A stretch of DNA of 64,000 nucleotides, from IMG/VR virus record IMGVR_UViG_3300036715_000227, positions 2,353-66,352 of that record. One strand, written 5' to 3'. The number at the start of each line of letters is the position of its first letter. Position 1 is the first letter of the stretch. This document shows, piece by piece, positions 7,148-54,224 of the stretch. A program made the position numbers and the translations under genes. A model generated the notes under the pieces. It was not told the origin of the DNA and did not search any database. It worked only from the letters and a program-made list of their open reading frames with translations. Origin of the DNA: a virus.

Positions 7148-7208
7148 TTTGTGACCTTTAAAGTTGTTGCAAACTTATTATACAGTAAGAACAATTAAAA
7201 GTCAACTG

Positions 7209-8373: not shown

Positions 8374-8618
8374 ACAGTATTTAGTTGTTGCGTCTTTAAT
8401 ATTTTGTCACGACGCTTATAAAGCGCAGCGTTAGAGATATTTAGCATTTTCTCTAGTTCACTTATGTTATAACTTGAGCAAGTCTATGATATCCCAATCT
8501 ACTTTTCTTTTATTTGTCTGCGCACATTTATGACTGCAAAATTTTTGCGAGGCAGGCTTCTTAATATTGCACACTGGGCAAGCATCATACTCTGCTGTTG
8601 CAGGTTAGATACTAATAA

Positions 8619-8696
8619 TGGCTCCGCACACTGGAATCGAACCAGTTTAAACAGGGATTAACAGTCCCGACCATGTCCTTACTCGGTTTCTGCGGA
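8619..8696 (-). tRNA. tRNA-Asn(GUU)
   Basis: Loop CT-GTT-AA, G73, CCA; near duplicate of 22274-22351. Confidence 0.88.
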
Positions 8697-8860
8697 ATAA
8701 ATTCTTGCGCTACGGTCCAATAACCCCGTTCAAGTCTGCGCCAACATATCAGCAGTATAGTTAAATTTCATCTGTGATACATCCCAGTTTACGCTGGTCC
8801 GGTAAAGTCCTATACGACTTATCACATTGGCATTCTCCTAAAACTACTGACTAACAATTC

Positions 8861-15189: not shown

Positions 15190-15339
15190 CTCATTAAATT
15201 TTTAATGAACAAAATGTGTTTCTCGCATTAGGTCATTTCTGCCGTCTGCTACCTTATTGCCCCATCTAGTGGTGTGCAATCAAACACTAAACTCTTGCAG
15301 TTAACTCGATCATTTACTGCTTTATTTAACTTATGTCTT

Positions 15340-15461
15340 ATTATACAATAAGAACAATTACTTAGCAAGTTCTTTTAACATTGTGTCTACCAACTTTCGT
15401 TGCCGTTTCCGTTAACTACTTACTAAGCTTCTATTATACATTAAGATGTATTATTGCGCAA
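15340..15461 (-). promoter_or_regulatory. two tandem sigma70-type promoters
   Basis: TTGCGC-N17-TATAAT and TTGCTA-N17-TATAAT, each with TCTTAWTG before the -10. Confidence 0.7.
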
Positions 15462-22266: not shown

Positions 22267-22273
22267 ATAAAAT

Positions 22274-22351
22274 TGGCTCCGCACACTGGAATCGAACCAG
22301 TTTAAACAGTGATTAACAGTCACGTCCTTGTCCATACTTGGATTCTGCGGA
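22274..22351 (-). tRNA. tRNA-Asn(GUU)
   Basis: CT-GTT-AA. Confidence 0.88.
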
Positions 22352-22359
22352 ATATAAAC

Positions 22360-23095: not shown

Positions 23096-23170
23096 TGGTA
23101 GGGGGTATGGGAGTCGAACCCATTCACTTGATTTCAAAGACCAATATCTGCTCCAATCGATTTACCCCCA
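23096..23170 (-). tRNA. tRNA-Gln(UUG)
   Basis: TTGGT-CTTTGAA-ATCAA. Confidence 0.85.
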
Positions 23171-23802
23171 ACAATCTCTTTTAAATCATTTTTCATTATG
23201 ATTTTAATTTTCACAGCAGGATTTTGTTCTATCACCCACTGCATTTTAACTTTGTCATTGTTCCACCAATGACCTTTGATTTCAATAATTTCCTGCGTAT
23301 CTATTAGATAAAAATCAGGCTTATACCAATGTACTCTGCCTATATTATCTTTATATCGCAGTGAGCTTGGTTTGCTCCACTTTATATCGTTTGCAATAAG
23401 ATAATTGTAAAATTCAATTTCCATCGACGACATAAGCATCATGTCGTTACCATTGCTGTCAATTACACGTAACCTCGCATAATTTTTATAGTGATGTCCG
23501 CGAGCATCAGCCGCAACGTCACTCTGTATGTAACAATCCCAACACATGCCATGCTTATTAGCCGGATGTACAACTTTACCGCAAATACAAAACTTTTGTG
23601 GCTTAGTTTTTCTATAACTAGTAATGCGTTTAGCAAGTATGCTTTTGCTTTGCTCTTCAGTTAACAATGCAATAGCTTTTTTGTTACTTTCGCTACGTTT
23701 CTTGTTAGTATCTGCTGTAAAAGATCTACTATTGGCGCAAGTCCTCGAACAAAACATTCCAGGCTTGCTGTGCTCCGCATTACATTTGGGGCATATCTTC
23801 AT
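23134..23802 (-). CDS. Zn-finger + PD-(D/E)XK putative homing endonuclease
   Basis: CPKC..FCSRTCANSR, YKPDFYL..IEIKGHWW; AGAGG RBS, ATAAATA promoter; stop inside tRNA-Gln. Confidence 0.75.
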   Translation of the reverse strand: MKICPKCNAEHSKPGMFCSRTCANSRSFTADTNKKRSESNKKAIALLTEEQSKSILAKRITSYRKTKPQKFCICGKVVHPANKHGMCWDCYIQSDVAADARGHHYKNYARLRVIDSNGNDMMLMSSMEIEFYNYLIANDIKWSKPSSLRYKDNIGRVHWYKPDFYLIDTQEIIEIKGHWWNNDKVKMQWVIEQNPAVKIKIIMKNDLKEIVGGKSIGADIGL

Positions 23803-24188
23803 AATCGAACCTCTATATAAAGTATTTATGTTACTCTGCAAATATAGGTACCATTACATAAATCCCGATCATAAATTGTCCTACCTATTGTTGCTACTCC
23901 CTAAGTAGCCACTAGATTCAGAGTCTATCGGCTTCGCAACATTGTTGCCGCCATATACGTCAATAGGTATTCAAAAGTGCACTGCAAGGTATCTGCATTA
24001 TTAATGCCCACAAGCTTGTGCACTTTTGAATACCTAGCATTGCTGCTAGATATGTTGGGGTCACTATGCCCCAACCAGGAGTCTTACTAATGCGTTCTCA
24101 CCGCAGTTTTCATGTTTCCTGTCCGCCTTTTTACAGCTTAATTTATAGTGTTCTGTTAGGTCTACGTTACCTATCCACACTGCGCATA

Positions 24189-24347
24189 TTAGCAAGCAAT
24201 TAAACTGCCTTTATGCGACTTTTTCTTGCACTGTAGCTGCGCATTGCGTTCCAACTTTCTAACGATCAGCTTTTGAAACTGCTCTTTAGTCATTGTATAC
24301 GTTGCAAGCCACTCTGCTTGTTGTTTACTCTTTTTATCTGTTTCCAT
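24189..24347 (-). CDS. 52-aa basic hypothetical protein, first gene after the attenuator
   Basis: AAAAGGA RBS; METDKKSKQQAEWLATY.. Confidence 0.55.
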   Translation of the reverse strand: METDKKSKQQAEWLATYTMTKEQFQKLIVRKLERNAQLQCKKKSHKGSLIAC

Positions 24348-24360
24348 TATTCCTTTTCAC

Positions 24361-24400
24361 AAAACAAAAAACCCTGAGGTCTTTCGATCCCAGGGTTCTT
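24361..24400 (-). terminator. intrinsic terminator (candidate attenuator)
   Basis: AACCCTGGGATC-GAAA-GACCTCAGGGTT then TTTTGTTTT. Confidence 0.85.
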
Positions 24401-24425
24401 GAAGTTTTTGTGTGTTACTTGCTGT

Positions 24426-24620
24426 TTAAGCGTAACCACTTCCTTCTCGAACCCTGAACGTAATCTCATTATCCCCGCGTGTCACAATAGTTTCTGTACC
24501 CGCATTATACGAGCCGTATGTAAAGCTATTGGACAAAGTCGCATCATGCCACATCGGTGCGCATACGGGCTGTTGCGCCTGGACCGCTAATGTTTGCAAT
24601 GATAAGAGACTATGTTTCAT
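24426..24620 (-). CDS. candidate leader peptide using all 20 amino acids
   Basis: 64 codons, 43 distinct sense codons by hand count; contains antiterminator TTCAGGGTTC; RBS weak. Confidence 0.6.
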   Translation of the reverse strand: MKHSLLSLQTLAVQAQQPVCAPMWHDATLSNSFTYGSYNAGTETIVTRGDNEITFRVREGSGYA

Positions 24621-24667
24621 TTTGTTTACCGTTTTAAGTTGCCTTGTTTAAATTTCTAACTTAAGCT

Positions 24668-24896
24668 ATTGTACATTAAGATTAATTAAAGTGCAACCGC
24701 TTTCTACATTTATTTATTCCATTTAGCACCACTGCTAAATTTTCTAACTTAAGCTATTGTACAATAAGATTAATTATTATGCAACCTGCTTGTTAAGTTA
24801 TTTATACCATTTCAAAAAACACTGCTATTAAACACGTTTTTTGAACTCTTTTTGCTTTCAAGTTCTAATTATGCATTAAGACGCATTGTTTGTCAA
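24668..24896 (-). promoter_or_regulatory. three tandem sigma70-type promoters heading the tRNA array
   Basis: TTGACA-N17-CATAAT, TTGCAT-N17-TACAAT, TTGCAC-N17-TACAAT, sharing TCTTAWTG. Confidence 0.8.
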
Positions 24897-24911
24897 GCCA
24901 CTTTGGATAAC

Positions 24912-25178
24912 CTACTTAAAAATTGTGGACCACTTCTTTAGCTTCTCTGCCTTGGCAACGCTTGCTTGGCTTAGTTCTTCTTTATTCAATACGCCACTAG
25001 AAACCAAAAGTCCAATCATGCATATAACATCACCAGCTTCTTGCGTTAGGTTTTGTTGGTTGGAACGATCTTGCCAAGTCGAGTCTAGGCCCCAACGTGT
25101 GCACTTGCTTGCCGCCACTACCAACTCACCGCACTCTTCTTTGAGTATATCCAAAATCTCTTTGATTTTGTCGTCCAT
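24912..25178 (-). CDS. MazG-like NTP pyrophosphohydrolase
   Basis: EECGEL..SK..R.G..EAGDV. Confidence 0.8.
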   Translation of the reverse strand: MDDKIKEILDILKEECGELVVAASKCTRWGLDSTWQDRSNQQNLTQEAGDVICMIGLLVSSGVLNKEELSQASVAKAEKLKKWSTIFK

Positions 25179-25180
25179 AA

Positions 25181-26770
25181 TTATCGGGTTTCACGACCCA
25201 TTTTTTCCCTAGTAGGTGCCGTGCTTGCTTTGTCTTTGATACGTGCAATGGCTGCTGACTTTTCTGCGCTAGGGCCTATCTCTGTGCGGCCGCCCGTCAT
25301 TACATTAGGTTTTGCCAATGGAGTTTCTTCGTCTGGAATGTCGTCAATGTCAAGCCCTGCACCAAAACCATCATCACCATCCGTGACTCTACCTAATTTA
25401 AAACTAAATCCCCCTGCTGTTGGGTCTACAGCACTACACTTATTAACTACACTTATCTCGCCATCTAATTTAGCAGGCCACTGAGTTGTAAACACTAATT
25501 CGCCTCCCTTAAATTCGGAATACTGCTGAATAAAATTCATCTCTAAAATTTGCAATATTGTAGATTGAAACTCCGGAATAGCATTATGCTCATTAATTGC
25601 TTCTGCTACATACTTCTTTAGATTATAAACTAACTTACCGGCATCGCATGTGCGTTTTTTAACATTCAACCCAGAGAATAAAGGGCTAAACTTTGCAGGC
25701 AACGTTGAATCCTTGCCTTGTTTAAAGTTAGCAAGGTCAGTAACACATTGTTGAACTAAATTTGGATGCTTTTCAGACAACGGTAAAAATTTTAGCCAGT
25801 GTTTCGGCAAAGATTCTGGTGCTATATTAAATATAAAATCAACTGCCGAAAATGCTTGTGTAATGGTGCTAGGTCCAACTGTCCTGTCGGATGCTTGGCA
25901 TAGTTCCACAAAACGCAGAGCATTTTTTAATTTGCGGTTTTCTTTTAACTCTGGACTAATTTTCAATCCGGAGATAGCAGGGGCGGCACCGCCGCCATTC
26001 CCTTTACTAGAAATATTGACACTATGTGAGGTTGTTTCGCTAGTAATACTAGCGAAACTATCAGCCAGGTTATTATTTGCTTTAAGCGGGAAGTTCAACG
26101 TTAACTCGCCAATATCCCCTCCTAGCCATTCTAAGAAAGCCTTACGCTTTGGGAATACAGTGCGATTATATAGCAACGCCAAAACTCCAAGGTATTCGCC
26201 CGCATAATCAACGATTGCGTTACGCACTTTTTCTTTATCTTTTTCCAAATACTCATCCGGAAATACTACCCGTTCAGAAGAAATGATATACCGAGCAAAT
26301 TGCTGTACCACTTTGCCGTAGTCAGTGCTACTCAATATATTGTTGTTCGCAATGATATCAAAAAAATCAGCAGCATCTATATTTTGATCGCATATATGAA
26401 TTTGAGATGGCTTAACCTTTAACGCTTCTTTTCCTGCGTCAGAAGGGTTTTCTCCCACGGCTGCAGTCATACCACCAAATTCTTTTGTTTTAGCAAGCTT
26501 ACTTAAAGGGATAGAATCAGGGCTATTCAATATCTTTGCCTTAATTCCCCCTTTAAATTGTCCTGTATCAAATAATTGTTGGAATCGACTTGCCTCTGTC
26601 GGATCTATCACTATTTCCGCCCCGTCTAAACTAGTAAAAGGCGATCCAGATGCAATTTTTTTAATAAAAAGAGGAAAACGAGCATCATGGCCAGCGCCAG
26701 TTAATTCTGATGGGGCCAGGGTAGGAGCTTCTGTTAAAAAGTAATCAATTTTATTTAATAAATCGCGCAT
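25181..26770 (-). CDS. hypothetical protein, possibly virion-associated
   Basis: 529 aa; MRDLLNKI..LTE N-terminus resembles processed head proteins. Confidence 0.55.
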   Translation of the reverse strand: MRDLLNKIDYFLTEAPTLAPSELTGAGHDARFPLFIKKIASGSPFTSLDGAEIVIDPTEASRFQQLFDTGQFKGGIKAKILNSPDSIPLSKLAKTKEFGGMTAAVGENPSDAGKEALKVKPSQIHICDQNIDAADFFDIIANNNILSSTDYGKVVQQFARYIISSERVVFPDEYLEKDKEKVRNAIVDYAGEYLGVLALLYNRTVFPKRKAFLEWLGGDIGELTLNFPLKANNNLADSFASITSETTSHSVNISSKGNGGGAAPAISGLKISPELKENRKLKNALRFVELCQASDRTVGPSTITQAFSAVDFIFNIAPESLPKHWLKFLPLSEKHPNLVQQCVTDLANFKQGKDSTLPAKFSPLFSGLNVKKRTCDAGKLVYNLKKYVAEAINEHNAIPEFQSTILQILEMNFIQQYSEFKGGELVFTTQWPAKLDGEISVVNKCSAVDPTAGGFSFKLGRVTDGDDGFGAGLDIDDIPDEETPLAKPNVMTGGRTEIGPSAEKSAAIARIKDKASTAPTREKMGRETR

Positions 26771-34495: not shown

Positions 34496-35581
34496 TCAAT
34501 AATGATTTGACGAAAATACTGCAATCCACGGCAAAGGGTCAATGTAATCAGATGCATCGTTCATTCGTTCATCAAGGTCAGCATCAAAGCTTTGCAATGC
34601 TTGCATCATACGTATGGCTAATATTAGAGACATAACCAAATCGTCCGTCTCACCTTCTTTTGCTTCAAATGAATTGCCCTGGGCCACGAATGTTTTAAAC
34701 TCAGAGATCAGCAACTTAGAGGCAATGTGCAACTTCTTCTGTTCAATCATACTCTTTAGCTTTGCACACGCTGCCAACTTGCTCTTGTGCGTTGTATTAA
34801 AGCCCTTTCGTGCACGTTTCTGCCCAGGCTTACTTGGTTCAGTTAAAAATATGCCTCTAAAGTTTTCTTCACCGACTTGAGCAATAGCCATAAGCGCAGC
34901 TTCGCCCAGTGTATTATTTTCTACGCTGTAATAAATCTGGTTCTCTGTATTTGTCGTTTCGTACAAGTATTCAATGATGTCTTTCATAATCTGTACTTGT
35001 CGTTGAATAGGTGTCTTATTGTGATTCCATTCTCCTATTTGCTTTAAGCTTGGTAGCTCGATAATCTGAATAGCAGATGGGTCGCCGCCCGTACCTAACG
35101 ATGGATCTAATGACACTACATAAGTAGAGTGAGCATCTGGCTTCCCGTACCAACGCACAGTGCCTTGTCTCGATACCGGATCAATACCAGCCATCTCAAT
35201 GAGAGTCATCGAATTGATTAGCGTTTCATCATAAATCAAGAACTCGCAATTTTTAATGAGAATCCCATTTGCGTAGAATCTATGATTCTTTTCTACTTCC
35301 AATAAGTCGTACACTGGTTCTATATCGGCGACAGTCACAGATACAATCGTTTCTATTCCGTCATTGACGAATATTTTAGATCGTGGCTTTAATGATTCTG
35401 CTGCAACAATCTCAAATGTAGGCTTGAAGAATTTATGGTCAGGCGTGCATATAATATGTCTTGACTGTGTTTTAAGTAGCAATGTTTGCTTACTTCCCCG
35501 GCGCAGTAGTCCAGCAAAAGTTGACCACCCAGTATCTGTCAATACTTGCAATCCTATATTATTTTTTAATAAATCGTCCAC
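34496..35581 (-). CDS. terminase large subunit C-part: C-intein plus RNase H-like nuclease
   Basis: TPDH block B, VYDL, YANGILIKN|CEF; LDPSLG, VENN, DDLVM; likely GTG start after AAGGA. Confidence 0.88.
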   Translation of the reverse strand: MDDLLKNNIGLQVLTDTGWSTFAGLLRRGSKQTLLLKTQSRHIICTPDHKFFKPTFEIVAAESLKPRSKIFVNDGIETIVSVTVADIEPVYDLLEVEKNHRFYANGILIKNCEFLIYDETLINSMTLIEMAGIDPVSRQGTVRWYGKPDAHSTYVVSLDPSLGTGGDPSAIQIIELPSLKQIGEWNHNKTPIQRQVQIMKDIIEYLYETTNTENQIYYSVENNTLGEAALMAIAQVGEENFRGIFLTEPSKPGQKRARKGFNTTHKSKLAACAKLKSMIEQKKLHIASKLLISEFKTFVAQGNSFEAKEGETDDLVMSLILAIRMMQALQSFDADLDERMNDASDYIDPLPWIAVFSSNHY

Positions 35582-37121
35582 GAACAAATCCTTCTTCTTG
35601 TGTATTTTCTTTAAACTGCTTATTCACTACGCCGTTATTGTACCAAACTAATCCGAGCTTACCAACCTGGTCTTTTTTCAATCTACCTTTATTAAATCCA
35701 ATCGGGCACTCACTAGCGTATGTTTCAATTTGACTATCATTAAACCAACTCAACAAAATTTCTAATTCTCCTATTGTTACCTCGCGTATTTCTCCACTGG
35801 GCCACTTTAGTGTCACTATCGAATTTGCGCCCACACAACCGTGTTCGCGGCGGAAGCGTTCTTCACCGATACGCCCAATTTCCTCTGCCTTCCACACTTC
35901 GTCGCGATCAGGATGTTCGTCCCAGCTTGAGCGATATGCGCGGAATCCATTAGTGCCCAATGGGGTAACATTTCCAAACTCATCAAACGTCTTATTAGCT
36001 TGTTTCCATATTGTCGCAAACTGGTCTTCGTCTGAGTTAGGAGTGGAAGTAATAATAGCTTTACCACCAGTAGACAATGTAGGCGATATGGAAGTCCAAA
36101 ATTCTTTAGCAATGCTTGGTCTAACGAACGCAAACTCGTCACAGTTATGAGTTACTATGTTTCCGTTGACATAAAACTTGTGTGATATATGATCTACTTC
36201 GATAAGGTCATACACTGCACACGCACCTGATTCCCTTATAGTTTCTATCTCTACAGGTCCATCACTGGTATCAATAAAATCACCCACCTTCAGATCTTCT
36301 ACAGATATTTTTTCGTTACGCACGAAGAAAAAGTGCCTATGAGTAGCTTTAACTGATTGTCCGTTAACCAACTTTAATTCATATGTTTGTTTATTTTCTG
36401 CTTTAGTAACACCACGGAATCCGCGCCAGCCGCTCGGAGTGTCAATCAAATAGTTATTGTTTTCAACATAAGCGTCTACAATTTGATCAGGGTTACGAAG
36501 ATTCCAGTATAGTTCTTCTAAGATTACTGTCGATTCCTCGCCTGTTTTTTTGTTCTGCAGTCTTACTGTAGATTCACCGTGTAGGCAATATAGGAGCGAG
36601 ATAGACATACCCCGTCCTGTTGTTTCCGTGGTCGTTTGGGATACAATGCGAGAGCCATTTTCAAAGTCTATCGAGCCTTTGTTGTACGATGTAGCGCCTG
36701 CTCTAATGTGGTCCGGACATAGCTCGTATGCATAGCGAACACGCTGCATAATTTCTTGGGCACCTGTGTACTTGTGAGCCGCAATCAAAATCGTACTATC
36801 TGGCACAAACATTGCGTACCATAATAAATACCCGGCCGCACTGGTAGATTTGCCAGTCTGGCGTGGCATTAGACTGATTGAGAAACGGTAACTGTTGTAC
36901 GTATCGATTAGCTTCTTCTGATAGTCATATGGATGGTACAGCATCTTACCCTTTGTCGGGTGTTGGATATAAAAGAAGTTATCCATAAAGTATTGTGGCC
37001 CTGTTACAGGATCGGAACACAAGGCGAACTCTTGAATCTGCTGAGGAGTCCATAGTACGGATTTGTACGGTGTTTTAACAATAGCTTGTGGGTCTATTGG
37101 TTTTTTGGGTATATTGCTCAT
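35559..37121 (-). CDS. terminase large subunit N-part (ATPase) with mini-intein and N-intein
   Basis: PRQTGKS Walker A; intein CLHG..THN (36587-36144) in Walker B; EHG|CVGANS N-intein. Confidence 0.92.
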   Translation of the reverse strand: MSNIPKKPIDPQAIVKTPYKSVLWTPQQIQEFALCSDPVTGPQYFMDNFFYIQHPTKGKMLYHPYDYQKKLIDTYNSYRFSISLMPRQTGKSTSAAGYLLWYAMFVPDSTILIAAHKYTGAQEIMQRVRYAYELCPDHIRAGATSYNKGSIDFENGSRIVSQTTTETTGRGMSISLLYCLHGESTVRLQNKKTGEESTVILEELYWNLRNPDQIVDAYVENNNYLIDTPSGWRGFRGVTKAENKQTYELKLVNGQSVKATHRHFFFVRNEKISVEDLKVGDFIDTSDGPVEIETIRESGACAVYDLIEVDHISHKFYVNGNIVTHNCDEFAFVRPSIAKEFWTSISPTLSTGGKAIITSTPNSDEDQFATIWKQANKTFDEFGNVTPLGTNGFRAYRSSWDEHPDRDEVWKAEEIGRIGEERFRREHGCVGANSIVTLKWPSGEIREVTIGELEILLSWFNDSQIETYASECPIGFNKGRLKKDQVGKLGLVWYNNGVVNKQFKENTQEEGFVRGRFIKK

Positions 37122-53868: not shown

Positions 53869-53924
53869 CTCCGTTAACTACTTACTAAGCCACTATTATA
53901 CAATAAAACCATTTAATGGTCAAA

Positions 53925-54164
53925 TCAATTTGCTTCGTTGCCAACTGCTGCAAAGTTTTCCCAAGCAACAAAGTAGCCGTCGTACTCTACGTTATACTCG
54001 AGCTTGTCGCCACTGTCACCTGTGCCTTCGGGGACAAGGGTAACTTTCTTGATATGGGGTTTAACTTGATCCCGCATTGTGAGGATGTGCACCCAGCTTT
54101 CGCTAAGTTTAGCAGTGAACATAACACGAGTGTATTGATCAAGCACCTTAACTTCAATGTCCAT
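53925..54164 (-). CDS. hypothetical protein
   Basis: GGAG RBS; promoter TTGCAC-N17-TATAAT. Confidence 0.6.
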   Translation of the reverse strand: MDIEVKVLDQYTRVMFTAKLSESWVHILTMRDQVKPHIKKVTLVPEGTGDSGDKLEYNVEYDGYFVAWENFAAVGNEAN

Positions 54165-54224
54165 CTCTAACTCCGCTTTATTAACTTAAGCTTTATTATA
54201 CAATAAGATGAATTTTGGTGCAAA

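Follow-up and report, generated by a model that had tools for sequence, protein, structure and literature searches.

An all-amino-acid leader ORF and a covarying antiterminator at the head of a phage tRNA array: a candidate ribosome-mediated attenuator

The attenuators of enterobacterial amino-acid operons, i.e. trpL, hisL, pheL, leuL, thrL and the multivalent ilv leaders, combine a promoter-proximal short open reading frame (ORF) with an intrinsic terminator and an antiterminator that excludes it and has its 5' strand at the end of the ORF; the position of the ribosome is the signal and a lagging ribosome leads to read-through. In the pyrBI and pyrE leaders of Escherichia coli, a ribosome close to the RNA polymerase blocks the terminator hairpin. 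A locus carrying the same parts as the amino-acid operon leaders, with ribosome position as its presumed signal, is described here from a stretch of 64,000 nucleotides (nt) of viral DNA (positions 2,353 to 66,352 of the IMG/VR record IMGVR_UViG_3300036715_000227), hereafter the window. At the head of an array of transfer RNA (tRNA) genes, a leader ORF is followed by an intrinsic terminator (T), the 5' arm of which can alternatively be captured by an antiterminator hairpin (H_A) that includes the end of the ORF. Comparative data indicate that this module is probably a ribosome-mediated transcription attenuator, whose read-through would increase when decoding lags. Phage tRNA genes themselves are viewed in three publications as sustaining translation under conditions where the tRNAs of the host undergo degradation or do not suit the codons of the phage (PMC10264068, PMC11555353, PMC11464382). 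A full-text literature search retrieved no paper on a leader-peptide attenuator located before tRNA genes or on an all-amino-acid leader, and the literature found by this search contains no description of how phages set tRNA levels.

All the elements considered here, i.e. the leader, T, ORF52, a structured RNA, an endonuclease-like gene and the tRNA array, are on the minus strand of the window. In the direction of transcription, a MazG-like gene is followed by three promoter-like sites (P1, P2 and P3), the leader ORF, T, ORF52, a 347-nt non-coding stretch, the endonuclease-like gene and the tRNA genes (Table 1). A previous reading of the window, made from the sequence only, had pointed to a 64-codon ORF and a strong intrinsic terminator ahead of the tRNA genes. 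Both are present, on the minus strand, and the array does not start directly after the terminator as that reading had stated, since ORF52, the structured RNA and the endonuclease-like gene, about 1.2 kb in all, lie in between.

Table 1. Coordinates of the leader module and of the neighbouring features in the window
Feature	Position	Strand	Remarks
MazG-like gene	ends at 24912	-	gene preceding P1
Promoter-like site P1, TTGACA-17-CATAAT	24896-24868	-	consensus match 11/12
Promoter-like site P2, TTGCAT-17-TACAAT	24784-24756	-	pattern search; in one copy of an 80-nt tandem duplication (repeat family D15)
Promoter-like site P3, TTGCAC-17-TACAAT	24696-24668	-	pattern search; in the second copy of the 80-nt tandem duplication (D15)
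Start-codon block, 44 nt	24594-24637	-	identical between the window and the related locus L001 (alignment)
Leader ORF, ATG + 64 sense codons + TAA	24426-24620	-	holds all 20 amino acids
Antiterminator hairpin H_A	24389-24458	-	folding; shares the 5' arm of T and contains the leader stop codon
Intrinsic terminator T, 14-pair stem, GAAA loop, U6GU4 tail	24361-24400	-	motif scan and folding
ORF52, gene of a 52-amino-acid protein	24189-24347	-	ribosome-binding site directly after the U-tract of T
Conserved structured non-coding RNA, 347 nt	23842-24188	-	covariation; between ORF52 and the tRNA genes
Endonuclease-like gene, 235 amino acids	23134-23841	-	phrog_945 match, 1.7e-12
tRNA array, 48 tRNA genes	293-23170	-	first gene tRNA-Gln, 23096-23170

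The two competing structures can be delineated precisely in the window. The 5' arm of T, AAGAACCCUGGG.UC, occupies 24400-24386 and is followed by the GAAA loop (24385-24382), a 3' arm extending to 24367 and the U6GU4 tail ending at 24361; folded alone, T reaches -18 kcal/mol. The segment TTCAGGGTTC (24458-24449), at the end of the leader ORF, can pair with GAACCCTGGG (24398-24389), and an additional pairing between GAAG (24446-24443) and CTTC (24404-24401) lengthens the antiterminator helix. At the RNA level, H_A is therefore made of the UUCAGGGUUC (24458-24449):GAACCCUGGG (24398-24389) helix, the GAAG:CUUC helix and an apical hairpin carrying the stop codon in its loop. The proposal that leader codons are complementary to the 5' arm of the terminator and form a mutually exclusive antiterminator with it is borne out by folding, as the minimum-free-energy fold of the leader RNA includes H_A and not T (folding z = -4.2). 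Forcing T to form instead of H_A costs 3-6 kcal/mol. When the upstream 100 nt were shuffled 1000 times with dinucleotides preserved, T disappeared from the fold in 0.8% of the cases and the energy advantage of H_A was equalled in 0.2%. In an equilibrium model of ribosome masking, which wrongly allows strands to pair around a ribosome located at the stop codon, T does not form in the window when the P site is at codons 1-51 and forms when it is at codons 52-63.

The module is not specific to the window. Related loci were retrieved by an alignment of ORF52-like proteins, i.e. blind to the leader, and the 48 loci thus obtained, together with the window and L001, make a set of 50, of which 37 are unique. 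A T is found 17-77 nt before the start of the ORF52-like gene in 36 of the 37 unique loci, and these 36 also carry an ATG-initiated ORF of 44-73 codons whose stop codon lies 16-29 nt before the stem of T. In the lone exception, L071, an HNH-like gene takes the place of the leader. In L071 and L073, which belong to one lineage, the gene with the HNH-like motif directly precedes the ORF52-like start, upstream of position 1501, and the scan detected no terminator. Same-strand tRNA genes are found downstream in 34 of the 36 loci, the other two being interrupted by contig ends, and no tRNA gene is found upstream of the leader in any locus. In four complete giant relatives, distant ORF52 homologs of 48-55 amino acids (aa) are located at the head of every tRNA array, and the DNA upstream of the arrays displays the same succession of promoter, small ORF, homologous terminator, ORF52-like gene, conserved non-coding stretch and tRNA genes.

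Both structures are conserved with their competition. Across the 36 relatives, 96.9% of the cells of T are paired and three pairs are changed on both sides. When the nascent RNA is folded up to the loop of T, 6-13 positions of the 5' arm of T are paired with the end of the leader ORF in all 36 loci; the stop codon is in every case inside the H_A hairpin, the 5' strand of which ends 1-30 nt before the stop codon. The pairing belongs to at least six sequence types, which differ between clades and change together with the arm of T: CCCGGGG:CCCUGGG in the clade with 45-aa leaders, UCCGGGGAGUUUCAUAGA with its complement in the 57-aa clade, and CUAGGGGCUUC:GAAGCCCCUGG, CCAGAGAGUUUC:GAAACCUCUGG, UUAGGGUCC:GGACCCUAG and CAGGGUUC:GAACCCUG as further clade types. 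Compared with 200 shuffles, the gain in arm-binding energy has p<=0.05 in 29/36 loci, including p<=0.01 in 20/36, and lies at 0.065-0.17 in the remaining seven. RNAalifold recovers H_A from 11 long-form members, with two pairs changed on both sides. As MAFFT is unable to align the 5' strand of H_A between clades, covariation of columns was counted only for T and for these 11 members, and the support for H_A elsewhere comes from the folds of individual loci and their shuffle controls. The attenuator hypothesis had been considered refutable by homologs that conserve the peptide and not the pairing; the opposite is observed, i.e. the pairing is found in 36/36 loci and covaries while the peptides diverge strongly.

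BLAST of 23100-25200 against phage records gave no match; when ORF52 alone or a DNA pattern spanning T served as query, the L001 contig was the only one detected; the 44 loci retrieved via a 529-aa neighbour have neither tRNA genes nor leader. A hidden Markov model of the leader of the window clade found nothing in five distant relatives, and distant leaders were recognized by position and by eye, then in the MAFFT alignment. Four loci from a metagenome scan with the leader alignment as query (L046-L049) were rejected as relatives, being chance matches on the opposite strand of bacterial genes.

A conserved feature of the leaders is the completeness of their peptides. No run of codons for one amino acid was found in these leaders; instead, all 20 amino acids are represented in 35 of the 36 distinct leader peptides (44-73 aa), down to lengths of 44-46 residues, with 3-9 kinds present as a single copy. 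In windows of the same length taken from 390 long ORFs of the retrieved loci, the complete set is reached in 1.0% of cases at 45 aa, 1.6% at 48 aa, 2.8% at 53 aa, 4.1% at 57 aa and 6.7% at 64 aa; in base-shuffled leaders, the corresponding rates are about 2%, 4.1-7.0%, 10%, 9-14% and 25%. Because the members are related, these background rates cannot be multiplied across leaders. Each of the 36 peptides has a single Cys; a peptide of this length would contain at least one with a probability of about 0.5. This Cys occupies one common alignment column in 28 peptides and is spread over seven other columns in the remaining eight, and this column differs even within close pairs such as L091 and L093 or the window and L001. 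Likewise, Trp is found in a common column in 33 peptides and elsewhere in three. In the 45-aa clade, columns of single-copy residues vary in 1/8 cases and other columns in 19/36 (Fisher p = 0.054), and the third codon position is the most variable (0.120, 0.123 and 0.184 for the three positions). As judged from these alignments, the amino-acid set is kept through residue turnover.

Globally, the present data establish the parts of the module and their conservation throughout the family, the fact that the two structures compete and covary, the maintenance of the frame and the retention of 20 amino acids. The idea of a ribosome-mediated attenuator sensing slowed decoding, already put forward in the sequence-only reading, thus gains comparative and computational support, notably from the pairing of the arm in 36/36 loci and from the 35/36 peptides with all 20 amino acids. 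The mechanism could be as follows. One to three upstream promoters would produce a transcript beginning with a leader of 44-73 codons in which every one of the 20 amino acids is represented by one codon or more. The final stretch of the ORF, together with the stop codon, would provide the 5' half of H_A, and the 5' arm of T its 3' half. H_A would be made before the 3' arm of T, so that, if the end of the ORF is free of ribosomes, H_A would form and block T, and the polymerase would continue into ORF52, the structured RNA and the tRNA genes. If a ribosome keeping pace with the polymerase reaches the last codons, H_A would melt, the 5' arm of T would be freed and T, which starts 16-29 nt past the stop codon and would be outside the leading edge of the ribosome, would form and end transcription. 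Read-through would therefore rise with a slowdown of decoding, at most of the codons, or with inefficient initiation, and decoding capacity and the expression of ORF52 and of the phage tRNAs would be linked by negative feedback. In this scheme, we infer that the leader ORF is translated and that T terminates, as well as the sign and the size of the response. According to Li et al. (2015, PMC4824070), a terminator can fold when 10-15 nt are free between its hairpin and the A site, and termination is about 90% with a stop codon 28 bp upstream and below 10% at 5 bp; the stop-to-T spacing of 16-29 nt fits these values.

ORF52 is under protein-level selection, with a ratio of non-synonymous to synonymous differences per site (pN/pS) of 0.20 in the comparison with L001 (pS 0.62, pN 0.125). 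As in addition its ribosome-binding site abuts the U-tract of T, T must be read through at some rate. A broader and more tentative reading is that evolution keeps at least one codon per amino acid so that depletion of any single aminoacyl-tRNA, whether by starvation, by late codon demand or by host anticodon nucleases, would raise transcription into the phage tRNA genes and the ORF52-like gene. The module might then be a pan-tRNA sensor with feedback, of which the ORF52-like protein and the structured RNA would be further response parts.

Several observations weigh against these interpretations. In the leader ORF of the window, 43 different codons encode all 20 amino acids; four Val, four Gly and five of the six Ser codons are present, and all the counts previously made by hand are right. 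Only 0.08% of the 11,219 64-codon windows from the long ORFs of the contig reach 43 codons (mean 33.4, standard deviation 3.7), as do 0.9% of 774 stop-free windows outside long ORFs. The comparison with the genes of the phage, which had been suggested as a check, therefore shows an extreme count, whereas base-shuffled stop-free versions of the same ORF make it ordinary, since 12% of them reach 43 codons and 22-25% hold 20 amino acids. Taken alone, the diversity of the ORF of the window mostly reflects even base composition. The match between leader codons and phage tRNAs was also considered as evidence and set aside as non-discriminating, 57/64 codons being decodable by simple wobble and 51 codons being decodable overall. 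Within the family, the leader of L078 lacks Asp, the sole Cys of L001 is encoded by its final codon, and P0002 and P0004, two relatives from the window clade available as proteins only, have no Cys as read from the alignment. Furthermore, all amino-acid kinds were expected to lie upstream of H_A, and this is not the case: the complete set is found far enough upstream of the 5' strand of H_A in only 7/36 loci, no better than in permuted peptides, and 23/36 loci miss one kind there and six miss two; Glu (45-aa clade) and Asp (57-aa clade) lie too close to H_A.

Translation signals and folds raise difficulties as well. The ribosome-binding site of the leader, already described as weak in the sequence-only reading, indeed yields a duplex of only -3.0 kcal/mol with the anti-Shine-Dalgarno sequence in the window, and relatives have an atypical site, with a conserved AGGAC located 15-19 nt 5' of the start codon in 32/36. 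No 1:2 hairpin that would give termination without translation was found, and the fold of the window without ribosome is the antiterminator. The masking model is clean only in the window, L001 and L079 and ambiguous in nine of the 12 loci tried; without ribosome, five of these 12 give no T and seven keep it. H_A and T are of nearly equal stability in the full-length RNA: the full-length minimum-free-energy fold keeps T in 18/36 loci, T being displaced or altered in the other 18, so that the switch would rest on the order of folding in the loci that keep it.

The promoters add a further series of such objections. The sequence-only reading had announced three tandem sigma70 promoters. P1 matches the consensus at 11/12 positions; P2 and P3 (TTGCAY-17-TACAAT) have a first hexamer with only 3/6 consensus positions, for which reason P2 escaped the consensus scan, and lie in a duplication. 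Moreover, related phage contigs match only 24650-24696 and then continue into other genes; P3 is therefore a generic phage promoter element. Promoter-like repeats of the TTGCAx-17-TATAAT type with a CTTAAGTTA-like box are observed at 15326-15461, 53870-54223 and 7163-7196 (families D10 and D18), both inside and outside the array. Strong promoter-like sites are present inside the array of the window, at 429-401 (12/12), 18436-18408 and 7205-7177 (both 11/12). In addition, a TTGACA-17-TA[CG]AAT site (10-11/12) lies across the ORF52-like start, just after T, in 32/36 relatives; it extends from about -10 to +19 around the start codon (L060-L106), its start site would be within the gene, and it is retained even where the encoded residues differ. 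The window, L001 and L103 lack this post-T site, and L101 has a weak one. From T to the first tRNA genes, L001 has no promoter-like site of at least 9/12 and the window has a single one, at 9/12, which speaks for the attenuator. The reservation, made from the outset, that with internal promoters the leader need not control the whole array is justified: because promoter-like sites lie within the array, the switch is unable to gate all of it. In most relatives it can only modulate tRNA transcription, and it may chiefly control the ORF52-like protein.

The close relatives reveal how the leader evolves. The leader peptide of L001 is 82% identical to that of the window, its frame being kept through deletions of 3, 3 and 6 nt; in a contig from run X5, the sequence of which was rebuilt from listed differences and translates, for the rebuilt part, to the stored protein P0003, net deletions of 6 and 9 nt leave the frame intact. 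H_A is retained in X5 (seven changes) and in L001 (about 10), all these changes being located in the variable strand between the stop codon and T, and its apical part re-pairs in other registers in both. Between the window and L001, the leader has a pS of 0.12 and a pN of 0.11, i.e. a pN/pS of 0.88 with radical replacements, and the MazG-like gene a pS of 0.55 and a pN of 0.09. Synonymous sites of the leader are therefore far more conserved than those of its neighbours (0.12 vs 0.55 and, for ORF52, 0.62), which also counts against a simple sensor, because it implies that the leader RNA carries constraints beyond those of a sensor ORF. According to these alignments, the leader is constrained at the nucleotide level, with its frame kept and its residues kept little better than silent sites. 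The promoter region located 5' of the 44-nt start-codon block is much more diverged than the block between the window and L001. RNA run X14, the one RNA run with related pieces, includes L001-like contigs, one of them spanning the ORF52 start and T and reaching into the leader; these are assembled contigs that may derive from DNA and are no evidence of transcription or translation, and the gaps in read depth seen in this comparison are meaningless.

Could the leader simply be an ordinary gene? In an early gene cassette, strong promoters would drive the synthesis of a functional peptide, T would be a plain leaky terminator or insulator, H_A would stabilize the mRNA at its 3' end and the presence of all 20 amino acids would be incidental. 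The recurrence of the peptide motifs LKH, W, SIRG, ND and FIEGxGYA across clades, pN/pS values of 0.45-0.55 in the larger clades, similar to those of the ORF52-like gene, and the unexceptional composition of the window ORF relative to its own base content are what such a cassette would give. It is nonetheless unlikely: the single Cys and Trp shift between alignment columns and are always kept, all 20 amino acids are found in 35/36 peptides of only 44-73 aa, the pN/pS of 0.88 between the window and L001 is accompanied by radical replacements, no Pfam or PHROGs family was found for the peptide, and a stabilizer would have no need to share the arm of T in 36/36 loci and to covary with it.

The nucleotide-level conservation of the leader could alternatively be that of an RNA-only switch, in which the ORF region would be a structured sensor binding a factor or ligand (e.g. 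a tRNA or a protein), whose binding would select H_A or T, and the frame would be a by-product. The unusually good fold of the leader (z = -4.2), its conserved synonymous sites (pS 0.12 vs 0.55-0.62 in neighbours, and 0.26 vs 0.39 in the 45-aa clade) and the invariance of the start-codon block between the window and L001 agree with this proposal. It accounts poorly for an ATG frame of 44-73 codons ending 16-29 nt before T in 36/36 loci that were found without reference to the frame, for indels that are all in frame, for the highest variability at the third codon position and for the retention of the amino-acid set. In addition, Rfam gave no match other than tRNA for 23100-25300 at E<=1 and no match, T-box included, for the leader regions of 12 relatives at E<=0.05. 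Such a switch is thus quite improbable.

A trans-acting role of the terminated transcript has also to be considered, since a transcript of about 250-440 nt, driven by one to three strong promoters, ends at a strong terminator and nucleotide conservation exceeds coding needs. The leader RNA would then be an abundant small RNA, similar to rnTrpL of Sinorhizobium, for which a published report (PMC6614838) provides a precedent. This function could be added to attenuation; no target of such an RNA was found, none having been looked for, and, as a replacement for attenuation, it leaves the kept frame, the kept amino-acid set and the sharing of the arm of T by H_A unexplained, and we give it little credence. 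Lastly, T might mainly shield the following promoter from occlusion by the strong upstream promoters, without any response to translation, as the near-consensus site found directly after T in 32/36 relatives could suggest, an explanation that is very improbable indeed because the window and L001 lack this site and keep the whole module and because neither the leader ORF nor H_A would be required. Ribosome-mediated attenuation accordingly remains the preferred reading of the module.

The sequences located downstream of T have their own features. The ORF52-like proteins belong to no consistent Pfam or PHROGs family, each weak match being found in just one of seven members. These proteins (48-55 aa; window and L055-L107) mark the heads of tRNA arrays, and the genome G002 has two arrays with one copy each. 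The structured RNA spans about 200-350 nt between the ORF52-like gene and the first tRNA gene (e.g. 23842-24188 in the window and 1666-1900 in L060); it includes invariant GGGCGGAC and AACG motifs, 19 of its 27 consensus pairs are compensated in 14 sequences, and it has no Rfam match. The endonuclease-like gene, which also gives a Phage_endo_I score under the cut-off besides its PHROGs match, is an insertion absent in L001, where the structured RNA runs straight to tRNA-Gln; its final 37 nt overlap the tRNA-Gln gene.

The tRNA genes of the contig cover 19 kinds of amino acid, and tRNA-Asn is absent from it. An 87-nt repeat, present at 8613-8699 and 22268-22354 with 90% identity, carries a tRNA-like T-arm motif, and its copy at 22268-22354 is called a tRNA neither by ARAGORN nor by the Rfam tRNA model. 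The contig (66 kb) comes from a large phage that has a UvsX-like recombinase and a T4-type terminase, and related contigs reach 350-525 kb. The gene of the large terminase subunit (35559-37121, minus strand) gives weak intein and HINT matches, both under the Pfam cut-offs, which suggests a putative intein insertion.

If the proposed mechanism is true, it would provide classical attenuation with a new sensing logic, reading the overall speed of decoding instead of one amino acid, and would constitute the first principle by which viral tRNA arrays are regulated. The family already supplies natural variants of the module, with 36 distinct leaders, relocated single-copy residues and covarying helices. 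Compared with the enterobacterial attenuators, the phage leader has no run of codons for a single amino acid, every amino acid being present, mostly once or a few times; it is longer, with 44-73 codons; no 1:2 hairpin was found in it; and its targets are a small protein gene, a structured RNA and tRNA genes, not biosynthetic enzymes. Like T-box riboswitches, the module would be a terminator/antiterminator leader sensing the state of tRNAs; unlike them, it is devoid of specifier loop and T-box bulge, and a kept reading frame replaces direct tRNA binding. As in pyrBI and pyrE, the distance between ribosome and RNA polymerase would decide on the action of the terminator, with the opposite sign, since in the phage module a close ribosome should free the arm of the terminator. 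Indeed, the stop-to-T spacing is outside the range in which a terminating ribosome blocks a terminator according to the spacing data of PMC4824070. The bmrB-bmrCD leader of Bacillus subtilis (PMC4191407) and the msrD leader (10.1101/2021.11.29.470318) offer another likeness, namely a short leader ORF and a terminator/antiterminator switch that report ribosome stalling and not the supply of one amino acid. In these two systems, the signals are ribosome-targeting drugs, the targets are resistance genes and stalling depends on particular peptide or codon contexts, whereas the phage module is characterized by amino-acid completeness and by tRNA supply as its target; no gene of a resistance ABC protein is found as target, the downstream sequences being the ORF52-like gene, the structured RNA and the tRNA genes. 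The module can be classed as a variant of ribosome-mediated attenuation, which it matches in its parts and from which it departs in its regulatory codons and in the 1:2 hairpin.

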